UHGV virus genome: UHGV-1356548
Reading direction: 5' to 3' (one strand)
DNA length: 64,000 nt
DNA from: a virus
Under the pieces are notes generated by a model, which searched no databases, had not been told where the DNA came from, and worked only from the letters and a program-made list of their open reading frames with translations. Every line of letters starts with the position of its first letter. The stretch's first letter is position 1. Both the position numbers and the translations under genes were made by a program. Positions 16,434 through 62,350 of the stretch are shown in pieces.

Positions 16434-17717
16434 TCATTCCAGAACCTCCCAAGTGTCTGGGTCAACATTTCGGACGCAGATACCGACAGGGAATTGGTAG
16501 TTGTTGTCTTCTGTCCTTGATTGATATTTGAAGGTGACAAACTTGCCGATCATTTCCTGCATCCTGTCATAGCTACGCTCCTCGTGCGTGCCTTTCATCT
16601 TCATTTTAACAATAACACCTTCCTTGTCAACACAGATAAGAACACCTTCATCATTCTTATCTTTCTCAACGTCAATAACTTTCACCTCTGCGTCGTTGAA
16701 CTTTTTCCATTTCAATGCTTCAGATGTTCGCTGACCGTACTCGTATTTACCGCAGAAATTACGCATGATAGTACCTTCATATCCTTCGGACATGAATATA
16801 CCAACAGATTCTTCGCAATGATCAACTGTGTACGCAAGCTCTGCGTCAACAACCTTGATATGGTCAAGCATCAGAGTGGTAACGGTATCCTCTGCATCCA
16901 TAAGATCCTTGCAGCGTCCAGACTCTGTTTCTGGATCCCACCACACCTTGTCGCTAGGAATATCAAAAATGTGATACTCCAGATCGTAGCTACAGTACCC
17001 ACCGTAACGCAAATCATCACGAACAGGCTCAACATCGACAGGAATATCTACCTTGTTGAAGTTTTTGTATGTTGATAAACCTGCCTTAATTGCTGCATGA
17101 CGGCGTTTTTTATCTGCCTCATAGTCTTTATCGATCTCGGCCTGAATCTCTTCCTGTGTGCGCCACCGTTTAGCAAGAGACACTATTTTCTGCAAAGGAA
17201 GACCATGAATGTATAGTTCCCCATCAAGTTGTTTAATCCCAGTGGTAGAATGGAAAGAACGAAGTTGCTCTAAAAGCTTTCCTTGAATAGGGTAGGACTT
17301 ATTACCACGGGAAATAAATTTAGGCTCACCATTTTGGAAAACAACAAGCAGACGAAGGCCATCTAACTTACGCAAGATCCAGCAAGGTAATTTAAGTGCC
17401 TTGCCACGCTTCAGGTAGTCATGCACCAGCATGGGTAAAAGATCAACACCCTGCTCGCAATCTTCCATGTTTTCAACATACCCCAGACGGACTTGTTTTT
17501 CCCACTTGCTGATAGCCTCAAGCTCGGCCTGTTGCTCAGCTGTAGTCTCGTTGGCACGACCTACGTTCTTAGGTGTGCATACCGTCTCTTTGTACTGCAG
17601 TTTACCATCAAGCTTGCCAAACTCTACGATAACCTTATCACCATCCGTGAATACTTTCCACTGTTGGTAGCTGCCATCTTTATTCAGTGCGTACAGTGTT
17701 GTTTTGATCTGATGCAT
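16434..17717 (-). CDS. ATP-dependent DNA ligase (intact copy)
   Basis: Motif I KLDGLR (KxDGxR), motif III LDGELYIHG, motif IV EGTIMR, motif V LKWKK; 427 aa. Its last 47 codons lie outside the duplicated unit. Confidence 0.7.
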   Translation of the reverse strand: MHQIKTTLYALNKDGSYQQWKVFTDGDKVIVEFGKLDGKLQYKETVCTPKNVGRANETTAEQQAELEAISKWEKQVRLGYVENMEDCEQGVDLLPMLVHDYLKRGKALKLPCWILRKLDGLRLLVVFQNGEPKFISRGNKSYPIQGKLLEQLRSFHSTTGIKQLDGELYIHGLPLQKIVSLAKRWRTQEEIQAEIDKDYEADKKRRHAAIKAGLSTYKNFNKVDIPVDVEPVRDDLRYGGYCSYDLEYHIFDIPSDKVWWDPETESGRCKDLMDAEDTVTTLMLDHIKVVDAELAYTVDHCEESVGIFMSEGYEGTIMRNFCGKYEYGQRTSEALKWKKFNDAEVKVIDVEKDKNDEGVLICVDKEGVIVKMKMKGTHEERSYDRMQEMIGKFVTFKYQSRTEDNNYQFPVGICVRNVDPDTWEVLE

Positions 17718-17986
17718 TACTCGGCCTCTTCCTTAAAAATTTTAAACATCTCTTCTTTACTCATTACCAACCAGTCTCCCATAAAGTCAACTAGCCAATC
17801 TCCCTGGTACAAGACAAGGTTACCAAAAGGCTCGACAAGCTCACACATGCGACGAAGATCTCTGGTCCGAACAGGTGACGATGTAAACACACCTGTATCA
17901 ATCCACCGTTGCAGATCAGATACTGATGAAGAGCTTCCGTCAAACTGATGTGCTTCTACAGGTTTAGCAAGATTAAATAACGGCAT
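17717..17986 (-). CDS. hypothetical protein
   Basis: 89-aa ORF; stop overlaps ligase start (TAATG). Confidence 0.3.
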   Translation of the reverse strand: MPLFNLAKPVEAHQFDGSSSSVSDLQRWIDTGVFTSSPVRTRDLRRMCELVEPFGNLVLYQGDWLVDFMGDWLVMSKEEMFKIFKEEAE

Positions 17987-18281
17987 TGCAGTCCTCCTTC
18001 TGTAGTAGGTCTTTTATAGGATAAACAAGTAAGTGTGGGTCGTAATAACGTATAGTCCTATTCTGCCACACTATGAACTTTATTACAACCAAATTTACAA
18101 TATCTTTATCACCATGTAGCCCAACACACACATTTGTCCATATTTTGTGGTTGAAGACCTTGCTATCGATGTAGATTTTAGTGTCAAACTTATCTTCCAT
18201 TCTACCAATAAGTTTGATCAGCTCCTTCATCTGGTCGCCAAACACAGCATCTTTTTCAAGATCTCTGGAATGCTTGTACAT
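17973..18281 (-). CDS. hypothetical protein
   Basis: 102-aa ORF. Confidence 0.3.
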   Translation of the reverse strand: MYKHSRDLEKDAVFGDQMKELIKLIGRMEDKFDTKIYIDSKVFNHKIWTNVCVGLHGDKDIVNLVVIKFIVWQNRTIRYYDPHLLVYPIKDLLQKEDCNAVI

Positions 18282-18310
18282 AACTGACTACCTCACTGCA
18301 TACTTTCCAT

Positions 18311-18336
18311 AATAAGTAAAGCCGGGTAATCCCGGC
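18311..18336 (-). terminator. rho-independent terminator (copy 1)
   Basis: Minus-strand GCCGGG-ATTA-CCCGGC hairpin followed by UUUACUUAUU, just 3' of the MazG-like gene stop. Confidence 0.5.
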
Positions 18337-18343
18337 TATGTTG

Positions 18344-19057
18344 TTAAATATACTCTGTTACATCCTTGAAGCTCGAAGGCTTCATAATCTTACCTTTACT
18401 GTCAAGGAATATAATAACTTTATTGCCGTTGTAGAACTCCTCTTTAGCAACGAAACCTTCGTAGCGACCACCAAAACGACGCTCAAGATCTTTAATCTCC
18501 AACTCGATGAGTTGTTCAGCAGGCATATCTGCACTGGCACCGTGTGAATGCCGTAGATGGTTGATCCGTGCAAACTTACTGTCATTAGATTTTAGAACCT
18601 TCCGCATCATCCCACACACATCCCCGCTAAGCTGGAACAGCAAAGCTGTTGATAACTCCGCTAGTCGGTAAGCTGACGCTCTTTGCTTGGATGTGTTTTT
18701 CGCAGCGATCAGTGTATCATAGAACTCACCGATCTTGAACTTAAGACCTCGCGGATTATCAAACAGGTTTGACCACTTTTCGTGGTTATCATTAACAAGA
18801 TAAGCTGCATAACTTGTGACAACGTGAAGATCGCAGGCCTCTTTTAGCAGGTGATCTCCACCATCACCTTTCTCCAGCTCTTCCAAAACCTCATTGAACT
18901 CTTCCTCAATGAAGCTAAGCTGTAATTCGAATGGTGTGTATGATTTTTTCACTTTAGCTGCCACACGGTTCCAGTTTTCCACCCAGTTGGCAGACCAAAG
19001 GTAGTTTTCAGGCTGGGACAGTTTTTCCAGGTTGTCGATCAGTTTAGTATTCAGCAT
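18344..19057 (-). CDS. MazG-like nucleotide pyrophosphohydrolase domain protein
   Basis: FIEEEFNEVLEELEKGDGGDHLLKEACDLHVV fits the EExxE...E...D acidic helix pattern of MazG/NTP-PPase family; C-terminal ~100 aa unassigned. Confidence 0.4.
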   Translation of the reverse strand: MLNTKLIDNLEKLSQPENYLWSANWVENWNRVAAKVKKSYTPFELQLSFIEEEFNEVLEELEKGDGGDHLLKEACDLHVVTSYAAYLVNDNHEKWSNLFDNPRGLKFKIGEFYDTLIAAKNTSKQRASAYRLAELSTALLFQLSGDVCGMMRKVLKSNDSKFARINHLRHSHGASADMPAEQLIELEIKDLERRFGGRYEGFVAKEEFYNGNKVIIFLDSKGKIMKPSSFKDVTEYI

Positions 19058-19070
19058 TAAAGGTCTCCTT

Positions 19071-19832
19071 TTAAAGTTCCATAAAGTTTTCTACAGTTTC
19101 AATAAATGCTTTATCAGAGAAAGCGTCAACAGCACCGTTAAACCATACAGGGATCCCGCGATCCTCATATTGATAAAGGTCGCTACGTGAAATGCCACTT
19201 CCATCTGCACTCTGCGAATCATACTTGTTTACAATCAGCAGTTTTGTGCCTTTACAAGTAGCAGGAAACAATTCCCAGTTAAAATTAATAACTGTGTTAG
19301 AACAACCTACCAGGATCACCATATCATTGCTTGTGAGAGATGTCAACAGGTCATACATGTCTGTATACTTAGGAGCAACCTCACCGAAGAACACTACATT
19401 GGGCTTAACCCAGGTATACTTGCCTGTATCTACCTCCGTGTATCCGATATTTTTAATTACATCATTACCTTCAGCATCTTCGTAGGTGATTTCAGGCAAA
19501 TACCCGTGGACATGTAAAATATCTTCATGTTTTACACCAGCACGCTCCAGCAAATCATCTACATTGGTAGTAAGGTTGATCACACGACCAGACCAGCGGG
19601 AATACCACTCAGCGATCCGAAGATGTGCAAGGTTAGGATCAACACTGCCCAGAGCTACACGACGTGCATTGTAAAAGTCATGCACCTTATAGTAGTTCTT
19701 GGCAAAGGTGTGGATGTTGCACACCTCATCGATGCTGAAATTCTCCCACATTGCAGTGCTACCAGATCGGAAAGTGGGAATACCAGATTCAGCGCTCAAA
19801 CCAGCACCGGAGATAATAATCAGTCGTCGCAT
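19071..19832 (-). CDS. Sir2-family (sirtuin-like) NAD-dependent protein, Zn-module absent
   Basis: GAGLSAESGIPTFR (sirtuin GAGxSxxSGIPxFR), DPNLAHL...TTNVDDLLERAG (PNxxH...TQNxDxLhxxAG), HVHG, KPNVVFFGE (RPxVVxFGE); no CxxC...CxxC zinc tetrad. Confidence 0.8.
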   Translation of the reverse strand: MRRLIIISGAGLSAESGIPTFRSGSTAMWENFSIDEVCNIHTFAKNYYKVHDFYNARRVALGSVDPNLAHLRIAEWYSRWSGRVINLTTNVDDLLERAGVKHEDILHVHGYLPEITYEDAEGNDVIKNIGYTEVDTGKYTWVKPNVVFFGEVAPKYTDMYDLLTSLTSNDMVILVGCSNTVINFNWELFPATCKGTKLLIVNKYDSQSADGSGISRSDLYQYEDRGIPVWFNGAVDAFSDKAFIETVENFMEL

Positions 19833-19840
19833 AAGTGTCC

Positions 19841-20191
19841 TCAGTAGATGTTTTGTTTAATCTCTATTCCAAACTTCTTGAATGAGTCAGCAGCAAGCAT
19901 AAATTTACGAGCTGCCGATGGATTAGAAGTATGCACGAAAATAATCACGTTGTCAATAAGTGGTGGCTTTCCGAATACAAGTTTCTCCTCTAGCGCAGAG
20001 AAGCAGTCGTACCCTTCAAGCACTTCACCTAGATCATTGTCAAAATGCCACTCAGAAACGCGCCTGTAGAGCTTTCTATTATCGTTAATAAAATCCATGA
20101 ACTCAGAAGAGTTCTTCAGCCAAAGAGCATCTTGGATTCCGTAATTTGACGGATCTCTCAAGTCATCTAGCCACACAATCAACTTCTTCAT
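19841..20191 (-). CDS. hypothetical protein
   Basis: Start set to ATG forming an ATGA overlap with the RNA ligase stop (MKKLIVWLDD...); 116 aa. Confidence 0.4.
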   Translation of the reverse strand: MKKLIVWLDDLRDPSNYGIQDALWLKNSSEFMDFINDNRKLYRRVSEWHFDNDLGEVLEGYDCFSALEEKLVFGKPPLIDNVIIFVHTSNPSAARKFMLAADSFKKFGIEIKQNIY

Positions 20192-21123
20192 TGCATATAG
20201 TCCTCGTTGTGAAAATAGCAATCAAGTATCTCACGGCGTTCCTGCTCCAGGAGGCAGTTCCACACATCTTCTGTGTAATTGCTACGAATGAAGTTTACCA
20301 TGCCATAAAACTCTTCGTCAATACGTTTAAAGATATCATCATCCCAAATCTTCCAAGCTTTACCCCTCATTACGGCCTTCCGTGCCAAATAGTATGGAGA
20401 CTTGATCTTCAGCTGCAGGTCATAAGGGTAGTAAGGCTTACGGATCATATACCCTTCGCCCCTTGTTTCTGCAGCTAATTCTTTTGCATAGCTGAACGGG
20501 ATTTCACGCACAGTGTGAGGACGTTTTGCACCAAGGTATTTGGCAATCCCATCTAAAGCTGCTTCTGGTAGCATTATTCCAGAATCATTATATCTGCAAC
20601 CTATCAAATATGCGCCATGGTCTTCTTGAACAATATGCGGATCTGAAGGGTGACAAATTTCAAACATGAATGTCATGTTTTCATTGCCCATAACCTTCTT
20701 GATAAGATCTAAATTACCACATTGCTCTTGGATGGTTTCCTTTGCAAGGTTACAATATGGAGAATCAAGAGACCCGGTTGTTGAGAACAATAGGTCACCT
20801 TTATGAGATGATACCACACCAAGGAATCCGTTCTTTTTCTCTACCGCAGTCACAAGCTTATTGTCAGGCAGGTTGGTGGAGTTTTCTCCCAAGTTAAACA
20901 CTTTTGTGAAGGGCCATGCCACAACATTTCCTTCATTACCTACAACAATGCCTCGGCACTCCAGTAAACGAGGGGACAAATGCCATAAATTGTTGTAAAA
21001 TACTTTTCTAGCATATTTATAGATCTTTAACCCGAGATCTGGGTAATACCTACTGGTTACAAGACCTTTGTCAACTAGGTCGTCTGCATTAAAATACTTC
21101 ATCATACGTTCCTCATTTGTCAT
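20188..21123 (-). CDS. RNA ligase-like nucleotidyltransferase
   Basis: Candidate motif I VEKKNGFLG (K-x-N-G), motif IV EGYMIRKPY, motif V LKIKSPYY; 311 aa; adjacent to kinase/phosphoesterase genes. Confidence 0.55.
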   Translation of the reverse strand: MTNEERMMKYFNADDLVDKGLVTSRYYPDLGLKIYKYARKVFYNNLWHLSPRLLECRGIVVGNEGNVVAWPFTKVFNLGENSTNLPDNKLVTAVEKKNGFLGVVSSHKGDLLFSTTGSLDSPYCNLAKETIQEQCGNLDLIKKVMGNENMTFMFEICHPSDPHIVQEDHGAYLIGCRYNDSGIMLPEAALDGIAKYLGAKRPHTVREIPFSYAKELAAETRGEGYMIRKPYYPYDLQLKIKSPYYLARKAVMRGKAWKIWDDDIFKRIDEEFYGMVNFIRSNYTEDVWNCLLEQERREILDCYFHNEDYMQ

Positions 21124-21166
21124 TTTGTCAGTCTATCCTGCCACACAAATAACCTAGTGTCAACAC

Positions 21167-21195
21167 TTGAAATTAACAAAACAGTCAGGTATACT
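21167..21195 (+). promoter_or_regulatory. sigma70-like promoter, duplicated copy at the duplication junction
   Basis: TTGAAA-N17-TATACT identical to the kinase promoter at 25828-25856; here it points into the antisense of the truncated ligase copy. Confidence 0.45.
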
Positions 21196-21235
21196 ACCGT
21201 TGAAATTAAAACGGAGGGTCACTATGTCTAAAATG

Positions 21236-22378
21236 CTATATATCGTGCGTGCCTTTCATCTTCATTTTAACAATAACACCTTCCTTGTCAACACAGATAA
21301 GAACACCTTCATCATTCTTATCTTTCTCAACGTCAATAACTTTCACCTCTGCGTCGTTGAACTTTTTCCATTTCAATGCTTCAGATGTTCGCTGACCGTA
21401 CTCGTATTTACCGCAGAAATTACGCATGATAGTACCTTCATATCCTTCGGACATGAATATACCAACAGATTCTTCGCAATGATCAACTGTGTACGCAAGC
21501 TCTGCGTCAACAACCTTGATATGGTCAAGCATCAGAGTGGTAACGGTATCCTCTGCATCCATAAGATCCTTGCAGCGTCCAGACTCTGTTTCTGGATCCC
21601 ACCACACCTTGTCGCTAGGAATATCAAAAATGTGATACTCCAGATCGTAGCTACAGTACCCACCGTAACGCAAATCATCACGAACAGGCTCAACATCGAC
21701 AGGAATATCTACCTTGTTGAAGTTTTTGTATGTTGATAAACCTGCCTTAATTGCTGCATGACGGCGTTTTTTATCTGCCTCATAGTCTTTATCGATCTCG
21801 GCCTGAATCTCTTCCTGTGTGCGCCACCGTTTAGCAAGAGACACTATTTTCTGCAAAGGAAGACCATGAATGTATAGTTCCCCATCAAGTTGTTTAATCC
21901 CAGTGGTAGAATGGAAAGAACGAAGTTGCTCTAAAAGCTTTCCTTGAATAGGGTAGGACTTATTACCACGGGAAATAAATTTAGGCTCACCATTTTGGAA
22001 AACAACAAGCAGACGAAGGCCATCTAACTTACGCAAGATCCAGCAAGGTAATTTAAGTGCCTTGCCACGCTTCAGGTAGTCATGCACCAGCATGGGTAAA
22101 AGATCAACACCCTGCTCGCAATCTTCCATGTTTTCAACATACCCCAGACGGACTTGTTTTTCCCACTTGCTGATAGCCTCAAGCTCGGCCTGTTGCTCAG
22201 CTGTAGTCTCGTTGGCACGACCTACGTTCTTAGGTGTGCATACCGTCTCTTTGTACTGCAGTTTACCATCAAGCTTGCCAAACTCTACGATAACCTTATC
22301 ACCATCCGTGAATACTTTCCACTGTTGGTAGCTGCCATCTTTATTCAGTGCGTACAGTGTTGTTTTGATCTGATGCAT
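21236..22378 (-). pseudogene. 3'-truncated duplicate of ATP-dependent DNA ligase
   Basis: Identical to residues 1-377 of the 16434-17717 product, then ends ...GTHDI* at the duplication junction, losing the last 47 residues. Confidence 0.6.
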
Positions 22379-22647
22379 TACTCGGCCTCTTCCTTAAAAA
22401 TTTTAAACATCTCTTCTTTACTCATTACCAACCAGTCTCCCATAAAGTCAACTAGCCAATCTCCCTGGTACAAGACAAGGTTACCAAAAGGCTCGACAAG
22501 CTCACACATGCGACGAAGATCTCTGGTCCGAACAGGTGACGATGTAAACACACCTGTATCAATCCACCGTTGCAGATCAGATACTGATGAAGAGCTTCCG
22601 TCAAACTGATGTGCTTCTACAGGTTTAGCAAGATTAAATAACGGCAT
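22378..22647 (-). CDS. hypothetical protein (duplicate of 17717-17986)
   Basis: Identical translation to copy 1. Confidence 0.3.
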   Translation of the reverse strand: MPLFNLAKPVEAHQFDGSSSSVSDLQRWIDTGVFTSSPVRTRDLRRMCELVEPFGNLVLYQGDWLVDFMGDWLVMSKEEMFKIFKEEAE

Positions 22648-22942
22648 TGCAGTCCTCCTTCTGTAGTAGGTCTTTTATAGGATAAACAAGTAAGTGTGGG
22701 TCGTAATAACGTATAGTCCTATTCTGCCACACTATGAACTTTATTACAACCAAATTTACAATATCTTTATCACCATGTAGCCCAACACACACATTTGTCC
22801 ATATTTTGTGGTTGAAGACCTTGCTATCGATGTAGATTTTAGTGTCAAACTTATCTTCCATTCTACCAATAAGTTTGATCAGCTCCTTCATCTGGTCGCC
22901 AAACACAGCATCTTTTTCAAGATCTCTGGAATGCTTGTACAT
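22634..22942 (-). CDS. hypothetical protein (duplicate of 17973-18281)
   Basis: Identical translation to copy 1. Confidence 0.3.
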   Translation of the reverse strand: MYKHSRDLEKDAVFGDQMKELIKLIGRMEDKFDTKIYIDSKVFNHKIWTNVCVGLHGDKDIVNLVVIKFIVWQNRTIRYYDPHLLVYPIKDLLQKEDCNAVI

Positions 22943-22971
22943 AACTGACTACCTCACTGCATACTTTCCAT

Positions 22972-22997
22972 AATAAGTAAAGCCGGGTAATCCCGGC
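22972..22997 (-). terminator. rho-independent terminator (copy 2)
   Basis: Duplicate of the 18311-18336 hairpin. Confidence 0.5.
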
Positions 22998-23004
22998 TAT
23001 GTTG

Positions 23005-23718
23005 TTAAATATACTCTGTTACATCCTTGAAGCTCGAAGGCTTCATAATCTTACCTTTACTGTCAAGGAATATAATAACTTTATTGCCGTTGTAGAACTC
23101 CTCTTTAGCAACGAAACCTTCGTAGCGACCACCAAAACGACGCTCAAGATCTTTAATCTCCAACTCGATGAGTTGTTCAGCAGGCATATCTGCACTGGCA
23201 CCGTGTGAATGCCGTAGATGGTTGATCCGTGCAAACTTACTGTCATTAGATTTTAGAACCTTCCGCATCATCCCACACACATCCCCGCTAAGCTGGAACA
23301 GCAAAGCTGTTGATAACTCCGCTAGTCGGTAAGCTGACGCTCTTTGCTTGGATGTGTTTTTCGCAGCGATCAGTGTATCATAGAACTCACCGATCTTGAA
23401 CTTAAGACCTCGCGGATTATCAAACAGGTTTGACCACTTTTCGTGGTTATCATTAACAAGATAAGCTGCATAACTTGTGACAACGTGAAGATCGCAGGCC
23501 TCTTTTAGCAGGTGATCTCCACCATCACCTTTCTCCAGCTCTTCCAAAACCTCATTGAACTCTTCCTCAATGAAGCTAAGCTGTAATTCGAATGGTGTGT
23601 ATGATTTTTTCACTTTAGCTGCCACACGGTTCCAGTTTTCCACCCAGTTGGCAGACCAAAGGTAGTTTTCAGGCTGGGACAGTTTTTCCAGGTTGTCGAT
23701 CAGTTTAGTATTCAGCAT
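23005..23718 (-). CDS. MazG-like domain protein (duplicate)
   Basis: Identical translation to 18344-19057. Confidence 0.4.
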   Translation of the reverse strand: MLNTKLIDNLEKLSQPENYLWSANWVENWNRVAAKVKKSYTPFELQLSFIEEEFNEVLEELEKGDGGDHLLKEACDLHVVTSYAAYLVNDNHEKWSNLFDNPRGLKFKIGEFYDTLIAAKNTSKQRASAYRLAELSTALLFQLSGDVCGMMRKVLKSNDSKFARINHLRHSHGASADMPAEQLIELEIKDLERRFGGRYEGFVAKEEFYNGNKVIIFLDSKGKIMKPSSFKDVTEYI

Positions 23719-23731
23719 TAAAGGTCTCCTT

Positions 23732-24493
23732 TTAAAGTTCCATAAAGTTTTCTACAGTTTCAATAAATGCTTTATCAGAGAAAGCGTCAACAGCACCGTT
23801 AAACCATACAGGGATCCCGCGATCCTCATATTGATAAAGGTCGCTACGTGAAATGCCACTTCCATCTGCACTCTGCGAATCATACTTGTTTACAATCAGC
23901 AGTTTTGTGCCTTTACAAGTAGCAGGAAACAATTCCCAGTTAAAATTAATAACTGTGTTAGAACAACCTACCAGGATCACCATATCATTGCTTGTGAGAG
24001 ATGTCAACAGGTCATACATGTCTGTATACTTAGGAGCAACCTCACCGAAGAACACTACATTGGGCTTAACCCAGGTATACTTGCCTGTATCTACCTCCGT
24101 GTATCCGATATTTTTAATTACATCATTACCTTCAGCATCTTCGTAGGTGATTTCAGGCAAATACCCGTGGACATGTAAAATATCTTCATGTTTTACACCA
24201 GCACGCTCCAGCAAATCATCTACATTGGTAGTAAGGTTGATCACACGACCAGACCAGCGGGAATACCACTCAGCGATCCGAAGATGTGCAAGGTTAGGAT
24301 CAACACTGCCCAGAGCTACACGACGTGCATTGTAAAAGTCATGCACCTTATAGTAGTTCTTGGCAAAGGTGTGGATGTTGCACACCTCATCGATGCTGAA
24401 ATTCTCCCACATTGCAGTGCTACCAGATCGGAAAGTGGGAATACCAGATTCAGCGCTCAAACCAGCACCGGAGATAATAATCAGTCGTCGCAT
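23732..24493 (-). CDS. Sir2-family protein (duplicate)
   Basis: Identical translation to 19071-19832. Confidence 0.8.
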   Translation of the reverse strand: MRRLIIISGAGLSAESGIPTFRSGSTAMWENFSIDEVCNIHTFAKNYYKVHDFYNARRVALGSVDPNLAHLRIAEWYSRWSGRVINLTTNVDDLLERAGVKHEDILHVHGYLPEITYEDAEGNDVIKNIGYTEVDTGKYTWVKPNVVFFGEVAPKYTDMYDLLTSLTSNDMVILVGCSNTVINFNWELFPATCKGTKLLIVNKYDSQSADGSGISRSDLYQYEDRGIPVWFNGAVDAFSDKAFIETVENFMEL

Positions 24494-24501
24494 AAGTGTC
24501 C

Positions 24502-24852
24502 TCAGTAGATGTTTTGTTTAATCTCTATTCCAAACTTCTTGAATGAGTCAGCAGCAAGCATAAATTTACGAGCTGCCGATGGATTAGAAGTATGCACGAA
24601 AATAATCACGTTGTCAATAAGTGGTGGCTTTCCGAATACAAGTTTCTCCTCTAGCGCAGAGAAGCAGTCGTACCCTTCAAGCACTTCACCTAGATCATTG
24701 TCAAAATGCCACTCAGAAACGCGCCTGTAGAGCTTTCTATTATCGTTAATAAAATCCATGAACTCAGAAGAGTTCTTCAGCCAAAGAGCATCTTGGATTC
24801 CGTAATTTGACGGATCTCTCAAGTCATCTAGCCACACAATCAACTTCTTCAT
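24502..24852 (-). CDS. hypothetical protein (duplicate of 19841-20191)
   Basis: Identical translation to copy 1. Confidence 0.4.
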   Translation of the reverse strand: MKKLIVWLDDLRDPSNYGIQDALWLKNSSEFMDFINDNRKLYRRVSEWHFDNDLGEVLEGYDCFSALEEKLVFGKPPLIDNVIIFVHTSNPSAARKFMLAADSFKKFGIEIKQNIY

Positions 24853-25784
24853 TGCATATAGTCCTCGTTGTGAAAATAGCAATCAAGTATCTCACGGCGT
24901 TCCTGCTCCAGGAGGCAGTTCCACACATCTTCTGTGTAATTGCTACGAATGAAGTTTACCATGCCATAAAACTCTTCGTCAATACGTTTAAAGATATCAT
25001 CATCCCAAATCTTCCAAGCTTTACCCCTCATTACGGCCTTCCGTGCCAAATAGTATGGAGACTTGATCTTCAGCTGCAGGTCATAAGGGTAGTAAGGCTT
25101 ACGGATCATATACCCTTCGCCCCTTGTTTCTGCAGCTAATTCTTTTGCATAGCTGAACGGGATTTCACGCACAGTGTGAGGACGTTTTGCACCAAGGTAT
25201 TTGGCAATCCCATCTAAAGCTGCTTCTGGTAGCATTATTCCAGAATCATTATATCTGCAACCTATCAAATATGCGCCATGGTCTTCTTGAACAATATGCG
25301 GATCTGAAGGGTGACAAATTTCAAACATGAATGTCATGTTTTCATTGCCCATAACCTTCTTGATAAGATCTAAATTACCACATTGCTCTTGGATGGTTTC
25401 CTTTGCAAGGTTACAATATGGAGAATCAAGAGACCCGGTTGTTGAGAACAATAGGTCACCTTTATGAGATGATACCACACCAAGGAATCCGTTCTTTTTC
25501 TCTACCGCAGTCACAAGCTTATTGTCAGGCAGGTTGGTGGAGTTTTCTCCCAAGTTAAACACTTTTGTGAAGGGCCATGCCACAACATTTCCTTCATTAC
25601 CTACAACAATGCCTCGGCACTCCAGTAAACGAGGGGACAAATGCCATAAATTGTTGTAAAATACTTTTCTAGCATATTTATAGATCTTTAACCCGAGATC
25701 TGGGTAATACCTACTGGTTACAAGACCTTTGTCAACTAGGTCGTCTGCATTAAAATACTTCATCATACGTTCCTCATTTGTCAT
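24849..25784 (-). CDS. RNA ligase-like nucleotidyltransferase (duplicate)
   Basis: Identical translation to 20188-21123. Confidence 0.55.
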   Translation of the reverse strand: MTNEERMMKYFNADDLVDKGLVTSRYYPDLGLKIYKYARKVFYNNLWHLSPRLLECRGIVVGNEGNVVAWPFTKVFNLGENSTNLPDNKLVTAVEKKNGFLGVVSSHKGDLLFSTTGSLDSPYCNLAKETIQEQCGNLDLIKKVMGNENMTFMFEICHPSDPHIVQEDHGAYLIGCRYNDSGIMLPEAALDGIAKYLGAKRPHTVREIPFSYAKELAAETRGEGYMIRKPYYPYDLQLKIKSPYYLARKAVMRGKAWKIWDDDIFKRIDEEFYGMVNFIRSNYTEDVWNCLLEQERREILDCYFHNEDYMQ

Positions 25785-25827
25785 TTTGTCAGTCTATCCT
25801 GCCACACAAATAACCTAGTGTCAACAC

Positions 25828-25856
25828 TTGAAATTAACAAAACAGTCAGGTATACT
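25828..25856 (+). promoter_or_regulatory. sigma70-like promoter of kinase/phosphoesterase operon
   Basis: TTGAAA (25828-25833), 17-bp spacer, TATACT (25851-25856); GGAGGG RBS precedes ATG 25885; direct repeat TTGAAATTAA occurs twice in this region. Confidence 0.5.
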
Positions 25857-25884
25857 ACCGTTGAAATTAAAACGGAGGGTCACT

Positions 25885-26295
25885 ATGTCTAAAATGCTAT
25901 ATATCGTGCGTGGTCTACCAGGGTCTGGCAAATCAACACTGGCAAATGCGCTATCTTTAGAGGGTCTGTATCCACATTTTGAGAACGACATGTTCTGGTA
26001 TGACGATGACGGCAATTACAACTGGGATGCAAGTAAAGTAACACTCGCAGCAAAATGGTGCAAAGATAACGTAGAAGATATGATGCGTATGGGATACGAC
26101 CGTATCGTGGTAAGTAATACGTTTACAAAAGAAAAACATGTGCAGGAATATGTTGACATGGCAATCAGTCATGGGTATAGTTATACCGTGATCGTGGTTG
26201 AAAACCGCCACGGTAATAAAAGCATTCATGATGTTCCAGACAAGGTTGTGGATCGTATGGAACGCCAGCTTAAAAACTGCATTAAACTTAAATGA
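25885..26295 (+). CDS. P-loop polynucleotide 5'-kinase-like protein
   Basis: Walker A RGLPGSGKST at residues 9-18 and overall resemblance to the kinase domain of T4 Pnk; start moved to ATG 25885 (the ORF-track TTG start at 25828 lies in the promoter). Confidence 0.55.
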   Translation: MSKMLYIVRGLPGSGKSTLANALSLEGLYPHFENDMFWYDDDGNYNWDASKVTLAAKWCKDNVEDMMRMGYDRIVVSNTFTKEKHVQEYVDMAISHGYSYTVIVVENRHGNKSIHDVPDKVVDRMERQLKNCIKLK

Positions 26296-26302
26296 GGAAT
26301 GT

Positions 26303-26857
26303 ATGAAATACTTTGTAACAAGCGACACACACTTTCTCCACCAGCGGGTCATGGAGTTTGATTCATGTCAAAAACACAGATCTCAGTATGATCACAATCT
26401 TGACAGTATGAATGCGGGAATCATCGCCAAGTGGAACTCTGTTGTGTCACCTGCAGACACTGTGTTCCACTTGGGAGATATTGCGTGCACTAATGATAAG
26501 AATATCAACAACTTACTTCCAGATATTCTAAATATGTTGAACGGACATATTATTCTTGTTCGTGGCAACCATGACACAAGGACGACTGTCAGAATTATGA
26601 AAGAGTTCGGTCATGAGGTTGTAGATTATTACGAGCTTCGCCACAACAAGAATTTGATCTGTATGAGCCATTACCAGTTTGCAAAGTGGAACAGAAAGCC
26701 TCACGGATCAGTCCAACTGTTCGGTCATGCTCACGGAACCACACAACAGTTGTTTGGCAGGCAGCTTGATGTCGGTTGGGATGTGTGGGGGAGACTCTTA
26801 CCATTAGAAGAGGCATACCGTATTGCAATGAGTTTTGATATTGACAGCAGGGAGTAA
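26303..26857 (+). CDS. calcineurin-like metallophosphoesterase
   Basis: Motifs VTSDTHF (DxH), GDIA (GD), GNHD, GHAH in canonical order; start at ATG 26303 (MKYFVTSDTHF). Confidence 0.7.
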   Translation: MKYFVTSDTHFLHQRVMEFDSCQKHRSQYDHNLDSMNAGIIAKWNSVVSPADTVFHLGDIACTNDKNINNLLPDILNMLNGHIILVRGNHDTRTTVRIMKEFGHEVVDYYELRHNKNLICMSHYQFAKWNRKPHGSVQLFGHAHGTTQQLFGRQLDVGWDVWGRLLPLEEAYRIAMSFDIDSRE

Positions 26858-27329: not shown

Positions 27330-27412
27330 CTGTCCGTGATACGGACACTACTGTCCGTCACGCGGACACATCTGCCCGTAATACGGACACTAGCTGTCCG
27401 TGATACGGACAC
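27330..27412. repeat. iteron array: four 19-bp dyad-symmetric repeats
   Basis: CTGTCCGTGATACGGACAC (27330), CTGTCCGTCACGCGGACAC (27351), CTGCCCGTAATACGGACAC (27372), CTGTCCGTGATACGGACAC (27394); spacing 21/21/22 bp; each has inverted half-sites GTCCG...CGGAC; a degenerate half-site ACGGATAC sits at about 27316. Confidence 0.85.
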
Positions 27413-27916
27413 ATAAAGAATATAACTAAAATAACTAAATAATAAAAAAATAAAAGATCTAGTACTTATGGTACTAAGTACATATACTTAACTTATGTAG
27501 AATATACTAGATCCTAAGTACCATGTTTTAAATTTATTACTTACTATGGGCAGTGTCGGCCCTTCATTGGCACTCGCCTACGAGGGGCGAGATGCCGGGC
27601 CTCTTTGGTGCACACAATAACAGAAGTTCATACATACAGGTCTGTTAACATGTGTGGGAGCGAAGCGATAGCGCAGGCCAAAGGCCGAGCACTGATGTGG
27701 ACCACCGACGAAAGCTTGCCAGCGCCGTAAGGAGTCGGTTGAGAGTCTCCCGCGCGAGCTTGGATGAAGTTTATGTGTGGAAACTGACAAGAAGGCCCCT
27801 AAATCGCTCCACAGCTATATAAACTATACCAGGTAATGCAATCGCACCAGTTTGATAGAAAAGCTCGTTACAAAGCGATACAGTTAGTTTTTCTATAACT
27901 TGAAGAGGAGGCAGCT

Positions 27917-29792: not shown

Positions 29793-29867
29793 GCCCTGTT
29801 AGCTTAGTGGATAAAGCAGCGGCCTTCTAAGCCGTTGACACTGGTTCGAGTCCAGTACGGGGTGCCA
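29793..29867 (+). tRNA. tRNA-Arg (anticodon UCU)
   Basis: Cloverleaf by hand: acceptor GCCCTGT/ACGGGGT, D-arm GCTT...AAGC, anticodon loop CTTCTAA, T-loop TTCGAGT, encoded CCA. Confidence 0.75.
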
Positions 29868-29871
29868 AATT

Positions 29872-29958
29872 GGGGAGTTATCCCGTAGGGGTAGCGGTGT
29901 AGACTGTAAATCTATTGTCATTGCGACTCGGGTGGTTCGACTCCACCACTCCCCACCA
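29872..29958 (+). tRNA. tRNA-Tyr (anticodon GUA), class II
   Basis: Acceptor GGGGAGT/ACTCCCC, anticodon loop CTGTAAA, long variable arm resembling E. coli tRNA-Tyr, T-loop TTCGACT, encoded CCA. Confidence 0.8.
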
Positions 29959-30072
29959 AATTTATAGTTTTAAATGCATAAATCATACAGATAATGGCAT
30001 TGATATTTATCGTCGTTTATACTAGTCACTAACTGCTCGAAAATCAGTGTCATTATCAGTATTGTTTATAAA

Positions 30073-30163
30073 TGAGGGTAGGGAGCAATGGTGCTCAAGC
30101 GGTCTTGAAAACCGTCCCGTTGAGGATGACTTGATGATGGTTCGATTCCATTACCCTCAGCCA
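30073..30163 (+). tRNA. tRNA-Ser (anticodon UGA), class II
   Basis: Acceptor TGAGGGT/ACCCTCA, anticodon arm GCGGT-CTTGAAA-ACCGT, long variable arm, T-loop TTCGATT, encoded CCA; 5' boundary +/-1 nt. Confidence 0.7.
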
Positions 30164-30260
30164 TATTGTTGACCTTGTAATTAAGCGAAAGCCGGAAGCA
30201 GAACCGGATTATCAAATGTTACAGTCGTCATCGCCGACTAGCAACATGGTCAACATACTG

Positions 30261-30359
30261 AGCTAGGTAAGCCCTTTGGCAAGGGCGAGGATTTTTAATC
30301 CTGAAAATAGACGAGGTAGTCGTTGAATACATAGGTGGTTCGATTCCATCACCTAGCAC
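30261..30359 (+). tRNA. atypical tRNA-like gene, Lys-type anticodon loop (UUU), oversized variable region
   Basis: Perfect 7-bp acceptor GCTAGGT/ACCTAGC, D-arm GCCC-TTTGGCAA-GGGC, anticodon arm AGGA-TTTTTAA-TCCT, T-arm GGTGG-TTCGATT-CCATC, but 32 nt (with its own GACGA-GGTAG-TCGTT hairpin) between anticodon and T arms; 3' end is CCT not CCA. Confidence 0.4.
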
Positions 30360-30364
30360 CTTTT

Positions 30365-30440
30365 TGCTGATGTAGCACAATTGGTAGTGCAATTGATTTG
30401 TAATCAATAGGTTGCAGGTTCAAGTCCTGCCATCAGCACC
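30365..30440 (+). tRNA. tRNA-Thr (anticodon UGU)
   Basis: Acceptor GCTGATG/CATCAGC, anticodon arm ATTGA-TTTGTAA-TCAAT, T-loop TTCAAGT, encoded CCA. Confidence 0.85.
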
Positions 30441-30441
30441 A

Positions 30442-30516
30442 TGGCCCTGTAGCTGGAAGGTTCAAGCAAGCGACTCATAATCGCCAGACGGTGGTTCAAT
30501 TCCACCCAGGGCCACC
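30442..30516 (+). tRNA. tRNA-Met (anticodon CAU; elongator or Ile-lysidine type)
   Basis: Acceptor GGCCCTG/CAGGGCC with G1-C72 pair, anticodon arm GCGA-CTCATAA-TCGC, T-loop TTCAATT, encoded CCA. Confidence 0.8.
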
Positions 30517-30527
30517 AAATAATAAAT

Positions 30528-30604
30528 ACTCCGCGTAGCTCAGCTTGGTAGAGCGCCTGATTTGGGATCAGGAGGTCGAGTGTTCGAATCACTCCGTGGA
30601 GACC
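30528..30604 (+). tRNA. tRNA-Pro (anticodon UGG)
   Basis: Acceptor CTCCGCG/CGTGGAG with the C1-G72 pair typical of bacterial tRNA-Pro, D-arm GCTC...GAGC, anticodon arm CCTGA-TTTGGGA-TCAGG, T-loop TTCGAAT, encoded CCA. Confidence 0.85.
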
Positions 30605-30650
30605 ACTTTCAGTTATACTTTAAACATATACAAACAAAAGGAACCTTTAA

Positions 30651-58751: not shown

Positions 58752-61700
58752 TGCCAATTGCAATGATTGATAACATCGTTGCTTCTGCAAGATCTTCAAG
58801 TTATGACTGGAACGCATCCAAGGCAGCTCTGGCTGACAGCCTGAACACTGTTACCACCAGAACTCTGGATAAGATTTTTGAGGGCAACAAATCTTACAGA
58901 AGTCAGCAAGATAGACAAAAGCTTCTCAGATCTTCTGCTGCACCCTGCTCTGTAGTGTATGGGAAGACACGCACGTCTGGACTGCTTGCGTTTTTGGAGC
59001 AGGACAGAGACAGAACCCTCCATTGTGCCATTGTTCTTGCTAATCATCCTCTGGAAGGTATAGAGGACATACTCATCGACGGTAATCCTATTTCCTCGTA
59101 TGGAGATCTGGTATCGTGGGAGCTACATAACGACAGAAAAACATCTGATCCTTTCATGGGTACACACTGCCCATCATGGTCACCTGACATGATAGGTAGA
59201 GGGATCAGTTGGCTACGTGCCAGCTTCAGGTTTGACCCTAACAAGTTTCCTTTTGGGTTGCCAAACGTTACACTCGTTAAGGTTGGTAAAAAATGCTATG
59301 ATCCTCGCATCAGTAAAGAGGTGTATACCAATAACGCGGCCTTGGTGATTCTAGACTATTTAAGAACGTACCTTAAATGTCCTGACGAAACCATCAACTG
59401 GGAGTCCTTCAAGGAGGCTGCTAACATATGCGACGAGGCGGTAAAAAACGCAGACGGAACCAGTGAGCGCCGATACACCATTAATGGCGAGTTTGACATG
59501 GACGAGGCTCCGGCAAGCATTATGGCAGAGATGCTGAAAGCTTGTGGCGCAGATCTCAGCTATGTAGCTGGTAAGTATGGTTTGCTGGTTGGTGCATACT
59601 ATGGCCCGGCAACAATGACGCTGAGTGAGGATTGTGTCTGTGGTGAGGTCAAGATCTATCCGGAAGCCTCATTTGACAAAAGATCCAACACAATAACTGG
59701 CAGATTCACTAGTCCGACCAAAGGGTATTCTGAAACAGATTTTCCATCAGTGTTTGTCCCAGAGTGGATAGGGAAGGATGGAGAAAGAAAGATAATCGAT
59801 ATAGACTATCGCTTTGTTACCAGTCCTTATCAAGCTCAACGTGTTTCTGCAATCTTCCTAAGACGTGCCAGAGCTGGCAGGATTATTGAAGTCACCTGCA
59901 ATATGCGAGGTTTCAAATTTAAACCTGGTCGTTACGTTACAATGGACCTCCCAAGTATTGGTATAGTAGGCCAAGAAATGAGAGTTCTTGAATGGGAGTT
60001 TACCAAAAAGGGTGGTGTCAAGGTAAAACTTCGTCAAGATGCTAAAGAGTGGAATGATGCCACAGGGCAACTTCCGGATTCTGGCGATGTAGATATTCCG
60101 ATATCTCCATCTGGTGTAGCTCAACCGCAAAACTTCAGATATTCCGTTCTCCAAGCTGGAGAAGTAACTCACGGTGTTTTGGCTTGGGACAACGTTGGGA
60201 CTTATGCTCAAAACATTGTGCAGGTCAGGAAAAACGGAGAGATTGTCTGGACAGCGCAGACAGTTGAGCAGTTTGTCCGTGTTGAAGGTCTGACTAAAGG
60301 TTCCTACACAGCCACTGTTGTTGCAACATCTTATAAAGGTGGTGTATCTCCAGAAGCATACTGTGAGTTTAACATTCAGGCACCTGAGGCTCCGGTTTCT
60401 GTAGAAGTTAAACAGGGATACTTTGCTATTACCCTGATCCCGCATAGCAGAGCCTTGGCCAGTGTAAGCACCCAATATGACTTTTGGACATCTGGGATGA
60501 CAAGATTGCCAGATACCAGTGATGCAACCGTTACTTCAAAAGCCACTCGTATGGGTGTTGGTTCAACTTGGACATCTGAAGGTCTGCAGAACGATAAGAT
60601 TTATTATTGGTATATCAGGACAACAAATGCTTTTGGTTCATCTGCTTTTGTGGAGTGTGCAGCCCACTGTTACACATCCATAGAAGATCTTATGCCGCAG
60701 ATTGATGCTGAGTTCAAAAAGACAGAGACTTATAAAGAGCTTACCGCCAATCTCGATAATGCAGTCAAGGAAATGGATAAAAATGTTGGTGCAGTCAATG
60801 ACCGTGTTACTAGCATTTTTGAAGAGCTTGGAGATACAATAGAGGGTGTTGTCAGAGAGACGACAGAAAAATTTACAGGGGTTAATGGAGAAATTTCTGC
60901 CCTTAACAGTAAGCTGGTAGCAGCTCAGCAATCCTTTGACGATAAACTTGCAGCAGAGTCTGGTAGGCTTGGGTCACTAATCGAGACAACAAATAGATCA
61001 ACCGTTGATCTTGTTAATCGTAAAACTCAAGCATTGAGTGAGCAAATAACTGCAACTCAAGGTACTCTGCGGGAAGAGTTGAAGAACACTGAGAGCAAAC
61101 TTAACTCCTCTATTCAAGAAACCAACAAGGCAACAACCGACCTGCTAAATAAGACAACGGAAGCTATTAAGCAGGATCTGGTGGCAGCTACAGGGAAGAT
61201 CACCAAGCTGGAAGATGATGTGCAGAAAGAGGTTGCCAATCTGCAAGCATCTATTCAAGAAACTAATAGTACAACAGTTGATCTTGTTAATAATACAGCC
61301 ACAGCGATCCGTCAAGAACTTACCTCTGCAAAACAAGAAATTGTTGACGAAATGGGTAATATTGATGAGCTTAGGGCTACAGTATCTAATACCTCTAAAG
61401 CTGTAACAACACTTGAGGGTAAAATAGATGCTCAGTGGGGGGCTAAGATTCAGGTTGACAGCCATGGTAATAAATATGTGGCAGGTATCCAGCTGGGCAT
61501 GGAGGGGTCTGGAGGACAAGTTCAATCATACTTTATGGTTAGTGCAAACAACTTTGCGGTGTACAACCCTGGTAACGGCACAGCAACCCTTGCTTTCGCA
61601 ATCAAGAATAACCAAGCGTTCTTGAAAGACGCTTTTATAGAGAATGGCACGATCTCCTCTGCCAAGATCGCACAAGAAATTTCGTCAAACAACTACGATA

Positions 61701-62350
61701 GCAACGGGTACCATAACTACGGTTGGTATATTAACAAGAACGGGCACGCCCAATTTATGGATGTGTGGGTGAAAGGTAACATCAACGCCAGTTCTGGTAA
61801 CTTCACAGGGGCAGTTAACGCCACCAGTGGTACCTTCCGTGGTGATGTTTATGCCAATAATGGTAGCTTTAGAGGCACCATAGATGCAACCGGAGGTACC
61901 TTCCGTGGTCGTGTAGAAGCTTCTGTTATCCGTGCTAACCAGTTCGAAGGTGCGATTGTTGCACACAGGACTTACGGAGATTGTGCTCCAGTATATAACT
62001 CCCGGCAAAGGGTTTGCCGTTGGAGGTGGAGATACGTAGATAACGTTTCAGGTCAGGGTAAGAACGTAACATTCTTCTTTAAACTGAACGGTACTCTTGC
62101 CAGCTCCCAACTGAATGCATGGATAGCTGGTCATCAGATCCTTGCTGGCAAGAAGTATTTTAACGACAACAACGGCATGTGTGCGGTAGGGATAACAGGT
62201 CTGGGTGAACAAACTATAGACATTGTTATCGAGATTTACACACCGTGGTCAACGTCGAGCGTGACAGGTGTCACAATCTCCTGTCCCACTGTGATCGTTA
62301 GTCGTTCTAACTCAAGCTTCCAGGGACCTTGGAACGAGTCTCACGACTAA
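58751..62350 (+). CDS. host-specificity / central tail fiber protein, lambda J-like
   Basis: 1199 aa; several blocks align by eye to lambda gpJ (GYFAITLIPH vs GYFQITATPH; IRTTNAFGSSAFVE vs IRSVNTVGKSAFVE; KYVAGIQLGMEG vs HYVAGIGLSMED; YFMVSANNFAVYNPGNG vs QFLVAANRIAFIDPANG); C-terminal about 150 aa diverge. Confidence 0.7.
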   Translation: MPIAMIDNIVASARSSSYDWNASKAALADSLNTVTTRTLDKIFEGNKSYRSQQDRQKLLRSSAAPCSVVYGKTRTSGLLAFLEQDRDRTLHCAIVLANHPLEGIEDILIDGNPISSYGDLVSWELHNDRKTSDPFMGTHCPSWSPDMIGRGISWLRASFRFDPNKFPFGLPNVTLVKVGKKCYDPRISKEVYTNNAALVILDYLRTYLKCPDETINWESFKEAANICDEAVKNADGTSERRYTINGEFDMDEAPASIMAEMLKACGADLSYVAGKYGLLVGAYYGPATMTLSEDCVCGEVKIYPEASFDKRSNTITGRFTSPTKGYSETDFPSVFVPEWIGKDGERKIIDIDYRFVTSPYQAQRVSAIFLRRARAGRIIEVTCNMRGFKFKPGRYVTMDLPSIGIVGQEMRVLEWEFTKKGGVKVKLRQDAKEWNDATGQLPDSGDVDIPISPSGVAQPQNFRYSVLQAGEVTHGVLAWDNVGTYAQNIVQVRKNGEIVWTAQTVEQFVRVEGLTKGSYTATVVATSYKGGVSPEAYCEFNIQAPEAPVSVEVKQGYFAITLIPHSRALASVSTQYDFWTSGMTRLPDTSDATVTSKATRMGVGSTWTSEGLQNDKIYYWYIRTTNAFGSSAFVECAAHCYTSIEDLMPQIDAEFKKTETYKELTANLDNAVKEMDKNVGAVNDRVTSIFEELGDTIEGVVRETTEKFTGVNGEISALNSKLVAAQQSFDDKLAAESGRLGSLIETTNRSTVDLVNRKTQALSEQITATQGTLREELKNTESKLNSSIQETNKATTDLLNKTTEAIKQDLVAATGKITKLEDDVQKEVANLQASIQETNSTTVDLVNNTATAIRQELTSAKQEIVDEMGNIDELRATVSNTSKAVTTLEGKIDAQWGAKIQVDSHGNKYVAGIQLGMEGSGGQVQSYFMVSANNFAVYNPGNGTATLAFAIKNNQAFLKDAFIENGTISSAKIAQEISSNNYDSNGYHNYGWYINKNGHAQFMDVWVKGNINASSGNFTGAVNATSGTFRGDVYANNGSFRGTIDATGGTFRGRVEASVIRANQFEGAIVAHRTYGDCAPVYNSRQRVCRWRWRYVDNVSGQGKNVTFFFKLNGTLASSQLNAWIAGHQILAGKKYFNDNNGMCAVGITGLGEQTIDIVIEIYTPWSTSSVTGVTISCPTVIVSRSNSSFQGPWNESHD

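Follow-up and report, generated by a model that had tools for sequence, protein, structure and literature searches.

How two copies of a multi-kilobase segment, identical letter for letter, come to lie side by side in a phage genome is the question raised by the virus genome UHGV-1356548. The stretch of this genome that was analysed here (64,000 nucleotides, hereafter the window) contains a 4,661-bp unit in tandem, with its edges inside a DNA ligase gene and a kinase gene and carrying, among others, an RNA ligase gene. A reading of the window from its sequence alone (hereafter the sequence-only reading) had described a sequence-perfect duplication joined at a 9-bp microhomology and had offered two origins for it, a very recent gene amplification or an assembly artefact. 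The duplication and its microhomology are borne out by the comparisons presented below, all relatives that cover the unit are single-copy, and the joint is private to this assembly. The explanation that we favour, with about an even chance of being correct, is a recent and probably sub-clonal duplication of the type described for phage T4 that was formed in vivo.

The repeat and its 9-nt joint

Direct comparison of positions 16591-21251 with positions 21252-25912 gave 0 mismatches over 4,661 nt, which confirms the perfect repeat. The identity runs on for 9 nt leftward and for 0 nt rightward, so that the exact repeat is 16582-21251 = 21243-25912 (4,670 nt, with a period of 4,661), and a repeat comparison of the 64-kb window places the two units head to tail in the same orientation. 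The 9-mer TCGTGCGTG occurs three times in the window and nowhere else in it, at 16582, 21243 and 25904, that is, at both edges and at the joint, exactly where the sequence-only reading had located it. The resulting layout is 9-mer, 4,652 nt, 9-mer, 4,652 nt, 9-mer, and the features that define the repeat and the genes cut by its joint are as follows (lengths of proteins in amino acids, aa; ORF, open reading frame).

16582-16590: left 9-mer, TCGTGCGTG, in the 3' part of the DNA ligase gene
16591-21251: copy 1 of the unit, 4,661 nt, closing with the joint 9-mer
21243-21251: joint 9-mer, where the region of kinase codon 9 meets the region of ligase codon 378
21252-25912: copy 2 of the unit, identical to copy 1
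25904-25912: right 9-mer, in codons 7-9 of the kinase gene
16434-17717, minus strand: intact ATP-dependent DNA ligase, 427 aa, the sole full copy (Pfam DNA_ligase_A_M and DNA_ligase_OB_2, the latter at residues 356-416)
21236-22378, minus strand: shortened ligase copy, 380 aa by translation, residues 1-378 followed by D-I-stop
21224-21736, plus strand: chimeric ORF, 170 aa by translation, nine kinase codons followed by ligase antisense sequence
25885-26295, plus strand: intact PNK-like P-loop kinase, 136 aa (Pfam AAA_33, E = 1e-10), with only its first 28 nt in the unit

Read on the minus strand, the left 9-mer corresponds to ligase codons G376 (third base), T377, H378 and E379 (first two bases). 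The second ligase had been described as 47 codons short, which holds as a net loss; the actual change relative to the 427-aa protein is an exchange of 49 residues for 2. The shortened protein retains little of the OB domain (Pfam residues 356-416) and, judged by what is missing, is probably inactive. On the opposite strand the first nine kinase codons are indeed fused to ligase antisense sequence, in a 170-aa ORF that starts at 21224. The kinase part of this chimera stops just ahead of the P-loop GLPGSGKS, and the ORF has no Pfam match. One intact DNA ligase and one intact kinase remain, as any tandem duplication requires, and all six complete ORFs of the unit have the same translation in both copies, as had been noted before.

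The 9-mer at the joint is not a product of chance. When 2 million random tandem junctions were simulated on the single-copy sequence, the probability of a microhomology of at least 9 nt was P = 5.25e-5, and the join thus bears the statistical signature of a homology-guided event, in agreement with the microhomology-mediated recombination that the sequence-only reading had proposed. Substrates for such joins are plentiful, since the single-copy 59-kb sequence contains about 4,000 direct 9-mer pairs with a spacing of 0.1-10 kb. The particular substrate used here pre-exists in relatives: phage I29, the best match to the window (see below), has the 9-mer exactly twice, 4,661 bp apart, and of 30 loci fetched from NCBI, ENA and Logan that extend across the unit, 23 have the same pair with a spacing of 4,661-4,662 nt. 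Whereas the substrate is widespread, the duplicated product is known only from the UHGV-1356548 assembly. Head-to-tail units, a flanking 9-mer that is already present in the single-copy ancestor and single-copy relatives are the marks of a microhomology duplication of the T4 type, and all of them are found at this locus.

Single-copy relatives and the I29 lineage

The region matches 133 phage records, nearly all of Vequintavirus (rV5-like) coliphages and some labelled as Campylobacter phage, and by sequence similarity the window belongs to a Vequintavirus (rV5-like) phage of E. coli from the I29 lineage. Escherichia phage I29 (ON286975.1) is the best match, with 100% identity over a span of 9,840 nt, which equals the 14,501 nt of the query minus 4,661. 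This phage came from human faeces in Cork, with E. coli LF82 as the isolation host, and its genome of 137,044 bp was obtained with Nextera XT libraries, MiSeq sequencing and assembly with default MetaSPAdes (PMC9355613). With one unit removed, positions 52-21251 of the window equal I29 at 100%, and the entire single-copy window (59.3 kb) is collinear with I29, with no compensating deletion.

Comparison with related phage genomes, a check that the sequence-only reading had itself suggested, gave a single-copy arrangement in I29, in all 114 records that cover the query (each does so in ~9.8-10.7 kb), in all 30 fetched loci that cover the unit and in a raw-read contig of the identical genotype that is described below. 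Matches to the junction region exist in 122 phage records, not one of which has the joint as an uninterrupted stretch. Exact searches with the junction 30-mer gave 0 matches in viral_contigs (IMG/VR) and metagenome_contigs (JGI), and the 30-mer is also absent from 37 fetched loci. Exact look-ups at the protein level, which are weak evidence, point in the same direction: the 380-aa shortened ligase is absent from the gene index and from ~15 billion proteins, the 170-aa chimera is absent from the latter, and the 378-aa and 51-aa ligase pieces that would be expected from a k-mer assembler that cuts at the 9-mer are not on record. The exact 427-aa ligase is present on 42 public contigs. Among the collections searched, the duplication is therefore private to the UHGV-1356548 assembly.

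Through the tail protein of the window we found the Logan contig SRR18842488_235 (132,091 bp), which was assembled from raw reads. Three parts of it, of 15,250, 20,936 and 20,555 nt, match the de-duplicated window at 100.000% identity. The last two of these stretches overlap, which leaves ~37 kb of distinct sequence, including all three single-nucleotide polymorphism (SNP) sites and the baseplate patch at which the window and I29 differ. The contig runs single-copy and unbroken through the genes for the phosphoesterase, the kinase, the RNA ligase, the cREC_REC protein, the Sir2 protein, the three unassigned proteins, the 427-aa ligase and the lysozyme. A break of this contig at the edges of the unit, as predicted for a joint with full coverage, was not found. 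Because a junction edge with full coverage would force a unitig break, the way in which unitig-based assemblers work suggests that the joint was either absent from the SRR18842488 run or removed as a low-coverage connection. The length of the contig is near that of a genome less one unit, ~4.95 kb short of I29, but by coordinates the gap lies at ~110.4-115.3 kb of I29, in a region of small early genes and not in the duplicated unit.

Three SNPs, at 31063, 62004 and 62102, are the only point differences between the window and I29, and all are non-synonymous. The i-spanin has G13 in the window and W in I29, and the tail protein has R1085 and S1118 in the window and Q and G in I29. The i-spanin of the window is the common form of the family (on 205 contigs), and its tail-protein variant was found on four Logan contigs only and in no NCBI, ENA or JGI record. 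These differences may stem from variation or adaptation in the phage stock, or from mistakes in the I29 sequence. A patch of ~40 nt at 63648-63688 also differs from I29, the window having the family-wide sequence (100% to phage DrSchubert). In place of these ~40 nt, the I29 record has a 56-nt perfect inverted repeat (27341-27396 / 27429-27484) that is absent from the window and relatives and that garbles the C-terminus of the baseplate protein, a protein of 437 aa in the window and, with its aberrant tail, of 427 aa in I29. With a size of k + 1 for k = 55, this inverted repeat is probably a metaSPAdes contig-end artefact that was left in the rotated record. By these differences the window is distinct from an I29 sequence with one unit added. 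The possibility that the duplication was planted or synthetic was set aside, as the breakpoints use a natural 9-mer pair and the window has the family form at the i-spanin residue and the baseplate patch where I29 differs, which points to a natural sibling of I29.

Two further observations concern the tail protein and the related records. The gene for the 1,199-aa tail protein contains short imperfect direct repeats at 60988-61291 and 61787-61914 (31 nt with 87% identity, 62 nt with 71%), which lie near the two amino-acid differences from I29 and are probably repeated structural motifs. About 20 records (MG0656xx) that are entered as Campylobacter phage and give Campylobacter jejuni as the host share 95-97% identity over 14.5 kb with the rV5-like phages of E. 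coli, and their host labels look doubtful.

The contig start and the origin of the joint

A second junction, at the very start of the window, bears on the kind of assembly from which the sequence came:

1-55: foreign 55-nt k-mer, an exact match to I29 88358-88412, on the opposite strand to the rest of the window and ~2 kb away

The 55-nt match ends with base 55, base 56 being different (A versus G), and from base 52 the window follows I29 from 86411 downwards, so that the two pieces overlap by AAAA (4 nt) at the start of a poly-A tract located downstream of the nrdD terminator. This tract is a natural contig-breaking site, because its length varies (12 A in the window, 12-14 A across assemblies) and two Logan contigs end at it. 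In each relative whose strands were compared, the 55 nt and the remainder of the sequence are in opposite orientation. The join of the 55 nt to base 52 onward was found in none of 121 relatives, and it is absent from SRR18842488_235, in which the order to the left of nrdD is normal and without the inverted piece. The largest default k of metaSPAdes is 55. Since exactly 55 foreign nt are what a start at a branching vertex would leave, base 1 appears to be a contig end of a k=55 de Bruijn graph, and we infer that the window derives from a k=55 graph assembly that took in at least one non-consensus junction. Artefact repeats of length k at the ends of SPAdes phage contigs have been documented, in that case of 127 bp (PMC9331655).

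The number of turns through an assembly-graph cycle is not readable from the graph, and a short-read assembler with k=55 is unable to measure copy number across a perfect repeat of 4.7 kb (PMC9104695). A graph assembler writes a junction-supported loop as two identical copies by construction, however frequent the junction is, and neither the two copies nor their zero divergence is thus informative on age or copy number, as for any perfect multi-kilobase repeat in a short-read graph assembly. The choice between amplification and artefact that the sequence-only reading had drawn from the zero divergence stands as such, but the divergence itself does not date the event. Two marks of an assembly loop are found here, namely a k-length signature at the contig end and an independent assembly of the genotype without the second copy. 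A pure mis-join by the assembler, without reads, was rejected since assemblers work with k values and minimum overlaps that are all much larger than 9 nt. Because the assembler alone cannot join at a 9-nt overlap, reads or molecules with the joint existed. Of the artefact option, the invention of the repeat by an assembler without reads is unlikely, and the form that is left is an in-vitro chimera or a minority junction.

In the explanation that we favour, the two pre-existing copies of the 9-mer, 4,661 bp apart in the single-copy genome, would have guided a join through illegitimate recombination, replication template switching or minihomology repair, as in T4 and T6. The outcome would be a recent head-to-tail duplication of 4,661 bp in part of the population of an I29-lineage Vequintavirus. 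A k=55 de Bruijn assembler would then write the surviving junction loop as exactly two identical copies, and the ligase without its OB domain and the 170-aa fusion of kinase leader and antisense sequence would be by-products of the joint. That the junction was formed in vivo, at whatever frequency, we consider slightly better than an even proposition. A junction edge that rivals two strong genomic edges needs appreciable read support to survive SPAdes-type graph cleaning, and because the internal junction edge competes with two full-coverage edges, it is likely to represent more than a stray chimera. It is likely to be sub-consensus as well, because the identical genotype runs single-copy and unbroken in SRR18842488_235 and because the window opens with an exact 55-mer that is a chimeric vertex. 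The lengths of family members (phage records and contigs) range from 131.9 to 143.6 kb, a range into which 137.0 + 4.66 = 141.7 kb falls, and a genome of 141.7 kb should be packageable without deletion. One Vequintavirus was called headful/pac by PhageTerm (PMC13211470).

Several points weigh against this in-vivo, sub-clonal duplication. The joint is known from assembled sequence alone, which attests neither its presence nor its frequency in DNA molecules. No other assembly of the same phage or of ~150 relatives has the duplication, and the junction proteins are missing from the ~15 billion proteins. Template switching by a polymerase in vitro likewise yields microhomology junctions, and at bases 1-55 this assembly has a further chimeric join, which is inverted. 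Furthermore, long perfect repeats are unstable in recombination-proficient phages, in which a high frequency without selection is not expected.

The most serious alternative, to which we give somewhat less than an even chance, is an in-vitro chimera that arose by template switching at the 9-nt microhomology during multiple displacement amplification (MDA) or polymerase chain reaction and gained enough local coverage to withstand graph cleaning, with the graph cycle threaded once, the phage itself single-copy and the duplication no feature of its biology. The join at bases 1-55 (4-nt microhomology, poly-A) shows that the assembly took in at least one chimeric junction; neither the raw-read contig with this genotype nor any of 111-121 relatives has it. 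The 56-nt inverted repeat of I29 is a k-sized artefact in the assemblies of the same phage lineage, and the raw-read contig of the genotype passes through the locus single-copy and unbroken. The same genotype is also present in the runs SRR9161xxx, which we take to belong to a gut-virome study from Cork that used MDA and metaSPAdes (10.1101/657528); this serves as a lead and not as evidence. However, random chimeras are individually rare, and the internal edge must beat two full-coverage edges, unlike the contig-end join, which lies where a homopolymer had broken the graph. Chimeras from MDA, as reportedly described by Lasken and Stockwell in 2007, typically form with short overlaps, in keeping with this alternative, but they are mostly inverted rather than direct, whereas the duplication is direct.

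An in-vivo origin includes as a subset a fixed clonal duplication, in which virtually every genome in the stock has exactly two copies, and this we regard as unlikely. It agrees with the contig as written, the resulting 141.7 kb lies within the family range, and fixed amplifications have been described in escape mutants of T4 and T6. Yet the only inspectable raw-read assembly of the identical genotype is single-copy, with no break at the unit edges, and from the behaviour of assemblers such an unbroken unitig is incompatible with a joint of full coverage. Moreover, the copy number over a 4.7-kb perfect repeat is beyond the measure of a k=55 short-read assembly (PMC9104695), and the 59.3 kb collinear with I29 contain no compensating deletion.

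Much less probable again would be a wild gut Vequintavirus with a selected "accordion" of the block of Rnl1, cREC_REC and Sir2 genes, in which a doubled dosage would counter a tRNA-damaging or NAD-depleting host defence. Recurrence of the duplication, as adaptive amplification would predict, was found in none of the 122 phage records, the 30 loci and the ~15 billion proteins, and there is no sign of selection in the sequences compared. Least credible of all, and rejected, are mis-handled genome ends (a long direct terminal repeat or a contig-end overlap made internal by rotation or circularisation), which are a frequent origin of perfect multi-kilobase repeats in phage records and include the known SPAdes end repeats (PMC9331655), but which leave the 9-mer on both sides of the unit in the single-copy genome unexplained (P = 5e-5) and are at odds with repeat edges inside two genes (ligase and kinase), with a group reported as headful/pac and not as having direct terminal repeats (PMC13211470), with SPAdes end overlaps that are k nt long and not 4.7 kb, and with a contig end at window base 1 and not at the repeat.

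The duplicated genes and comparison with known systems

The genes of the unit are all located on the minus strand, apart from the first 28 nt of the plus-strand kinase gene. The unit also holds the 5' 1,136 nt of the ATP-dependent DNA ligase gene, whose I29 counterpart (I29_81) is annotated as DNA ligase, together with the divergent intergenic region. Its remaining features and the gene that follows the kinase are listed here.

17717-19057, minus strand: three proteins without assigned function, 89, 102 and 237 aa, corresponding to I29_80, I29_79 and I29_78; second copies at +4,661
19071-19832, minus strand: Sir2-family protein, 253 aa (Pfam SIR2, E = 6.9e-28); second copy at 23732-24493
19841-20191, minus strand: cREC_REC (cyclic-phosphate processing receiver) protein, 116 aa (PF20274, E = 4.3e-14); second copy at 24502-24852
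20188-21123, minus strand: Rnl1-type RNA ligase, 311 aa (Pfam RNA_lig_T4_1, E = 1.1e-14); second copy at 24849-25784
21167-21195, plus strand: candidate sigma-70-like promoter TTGAAA-17-TATACT, 5' of the kinase start, by consensus match only; second copy at 25828-25856
26303-26857, plus strand: metallophosphoesterase, 184 aa (Pfam Metallophos_2), just outside the unit and completing the set of RNA-repair genes

The 89-, 102- and 237-aa proteins gave no match in the Pfam search. An Rnl1-family ligase, a P-loop kinase and a phosphoesterase are encoded together, along with cREC_REC and SIR2 proteins (Pfam), and on these domain assignments the locus is an RNA-repair gene cluster. The genes and regions that are doubled comprise the Rnl1-type RNA ligase, cREC_REC, Sir2, the three unassigned proteins and the promoter region. 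If the duplication is real, the fusion ORF could plausibly be expressed and copy 2 be transcribed in antisense. In addition, an extended -10 promoter-like site, TTGACA-16-TG-TAAAAT (11/12, by consensus match only), is present on the minus strand at 16603-16630 and 21264-21291. The first of these sits in the 3' end of the ligase gene and is directed at the lysozyme gene, and the second is directed into the region upstream of copy 1 of the RNA ligase.

Two features to the right of the duplication vary in annotation or structure. A cluster of seven tRNAs lies at 29793-30605, ~3.9 kb right of the duplication (Arg-TCT, Tyr-GTA, Ser-TGA, Thr-TGT, Met-CAT, Pro-TGG). One of the seven, predicted at 30262-30360 with a length of 99 nt, has an anticodon of four bases (atcc). 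Only four tRNAs are annotated for this cluster in the I29 record, against seven in the I29 paper. The large terminase (window ~31.7-33.3 kb) is encoded by one 515-aa gene in the window, I29 and some others. Many relatives have a split terminase consisting of a Terminase_6N part (142 aa), a gap or an HNH/Endonuclease_7 gene, and then a Terminase_6C part, a pattern that points to a mobile endonuclease or an intron-like element whose insertion differs between members of the genus.

What the duplication means depends on where the joint was made. If virions do contain it, the locus would be a natural case of microhomology-driven segmental duplication outside the T-even phages. Under laboratory conditions, T4 and T6 gain a higher dosage of counter-defence genes through such duplications, and, if true, the RNA-repair cargo would be a reasonable candidate for such selection. 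Should the accordion explanation hold, it would be the first counter-defence amplification caught outside laboratory selection and outside the T-even phages. If, on the other hand, the joint is a product of the library or the assembly, the record is unfit as evidence for gene amplification, a truncated ligase or a novel fusion protein.

The kind of event itself is already known from T4 and T6, and its mechanism is not new. In T4, amplification of dmd-tifA under toxIN selection is flanked by microhomologies of 6-10 bp, with one copy left between the repeats; the Hp17 and rII duplications are cited alongside, and headful packaging means that larger gains need compensating deletions (PMC9391042). 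Like T4, the phage studied here belongs to a group of large lytic myoviruses with reported headful packaging, and its units lie head to tail with a single copy of the microhomology between them, which is the arrangement of the 9-mer. It differs in having two copies as written, a 4.66-kb Vequintavirus unit and no compensating deletion within the window, and in that its duplication is known from an assembly alone while a second read set has this genotype with one copy.

The SegB-dependent amplification of tRNA-Tyr by which T6 defeats Septu has a 718-bp unit in many copies and depends on the homing endonuclease (PMC13096335). Both cases have a tandem repeat with a boundary gene that is C-terminally truncated at a microhomology, here the ligase, and the counter-defence genes against RNA damage in T6 find a parallel in the RNA-repair cluster carried as cargo here. 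In this phage, an HNH endonuclease gene (I29_84) is located ~1 kb to the left of the unit. A more distant parallel is given by the "gene accordions" of poxviruses (K3L), in which a large double-stranded DNA virus transiently gains tandem copies of an anti-host gene. These occur in a eukaryotic virus, however, and their recurrent expansion and contraction have been shown experimentally.

The artefacts of SPAdes and metaSPAdes resemble the window in its 55-nt foreign k-mer at base 1 and the I29 record in its 56-nt inverted repeat. The duplication differs from them in that a joint at a 9-nt overlap needs spanning reads, which turns the question into one of the origin and frequency of the molecules. 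As for the cargo, Pnkp and Rnl1 of T4 form a tRNA-repair pathway, and this pathway and the RNA-repair modules with cREC_REC (PF20274) are resembled by the putative Rnl1-family ligase, PNK-like kinase, metallophosphoesterase and cREC_REC protein at this locus. Unlike in T4, kinase and phosphatase are here separate small proteins, Sir2 and three unassigned proteins are interleaved, and the duplication takes in the module on its ligase side only.

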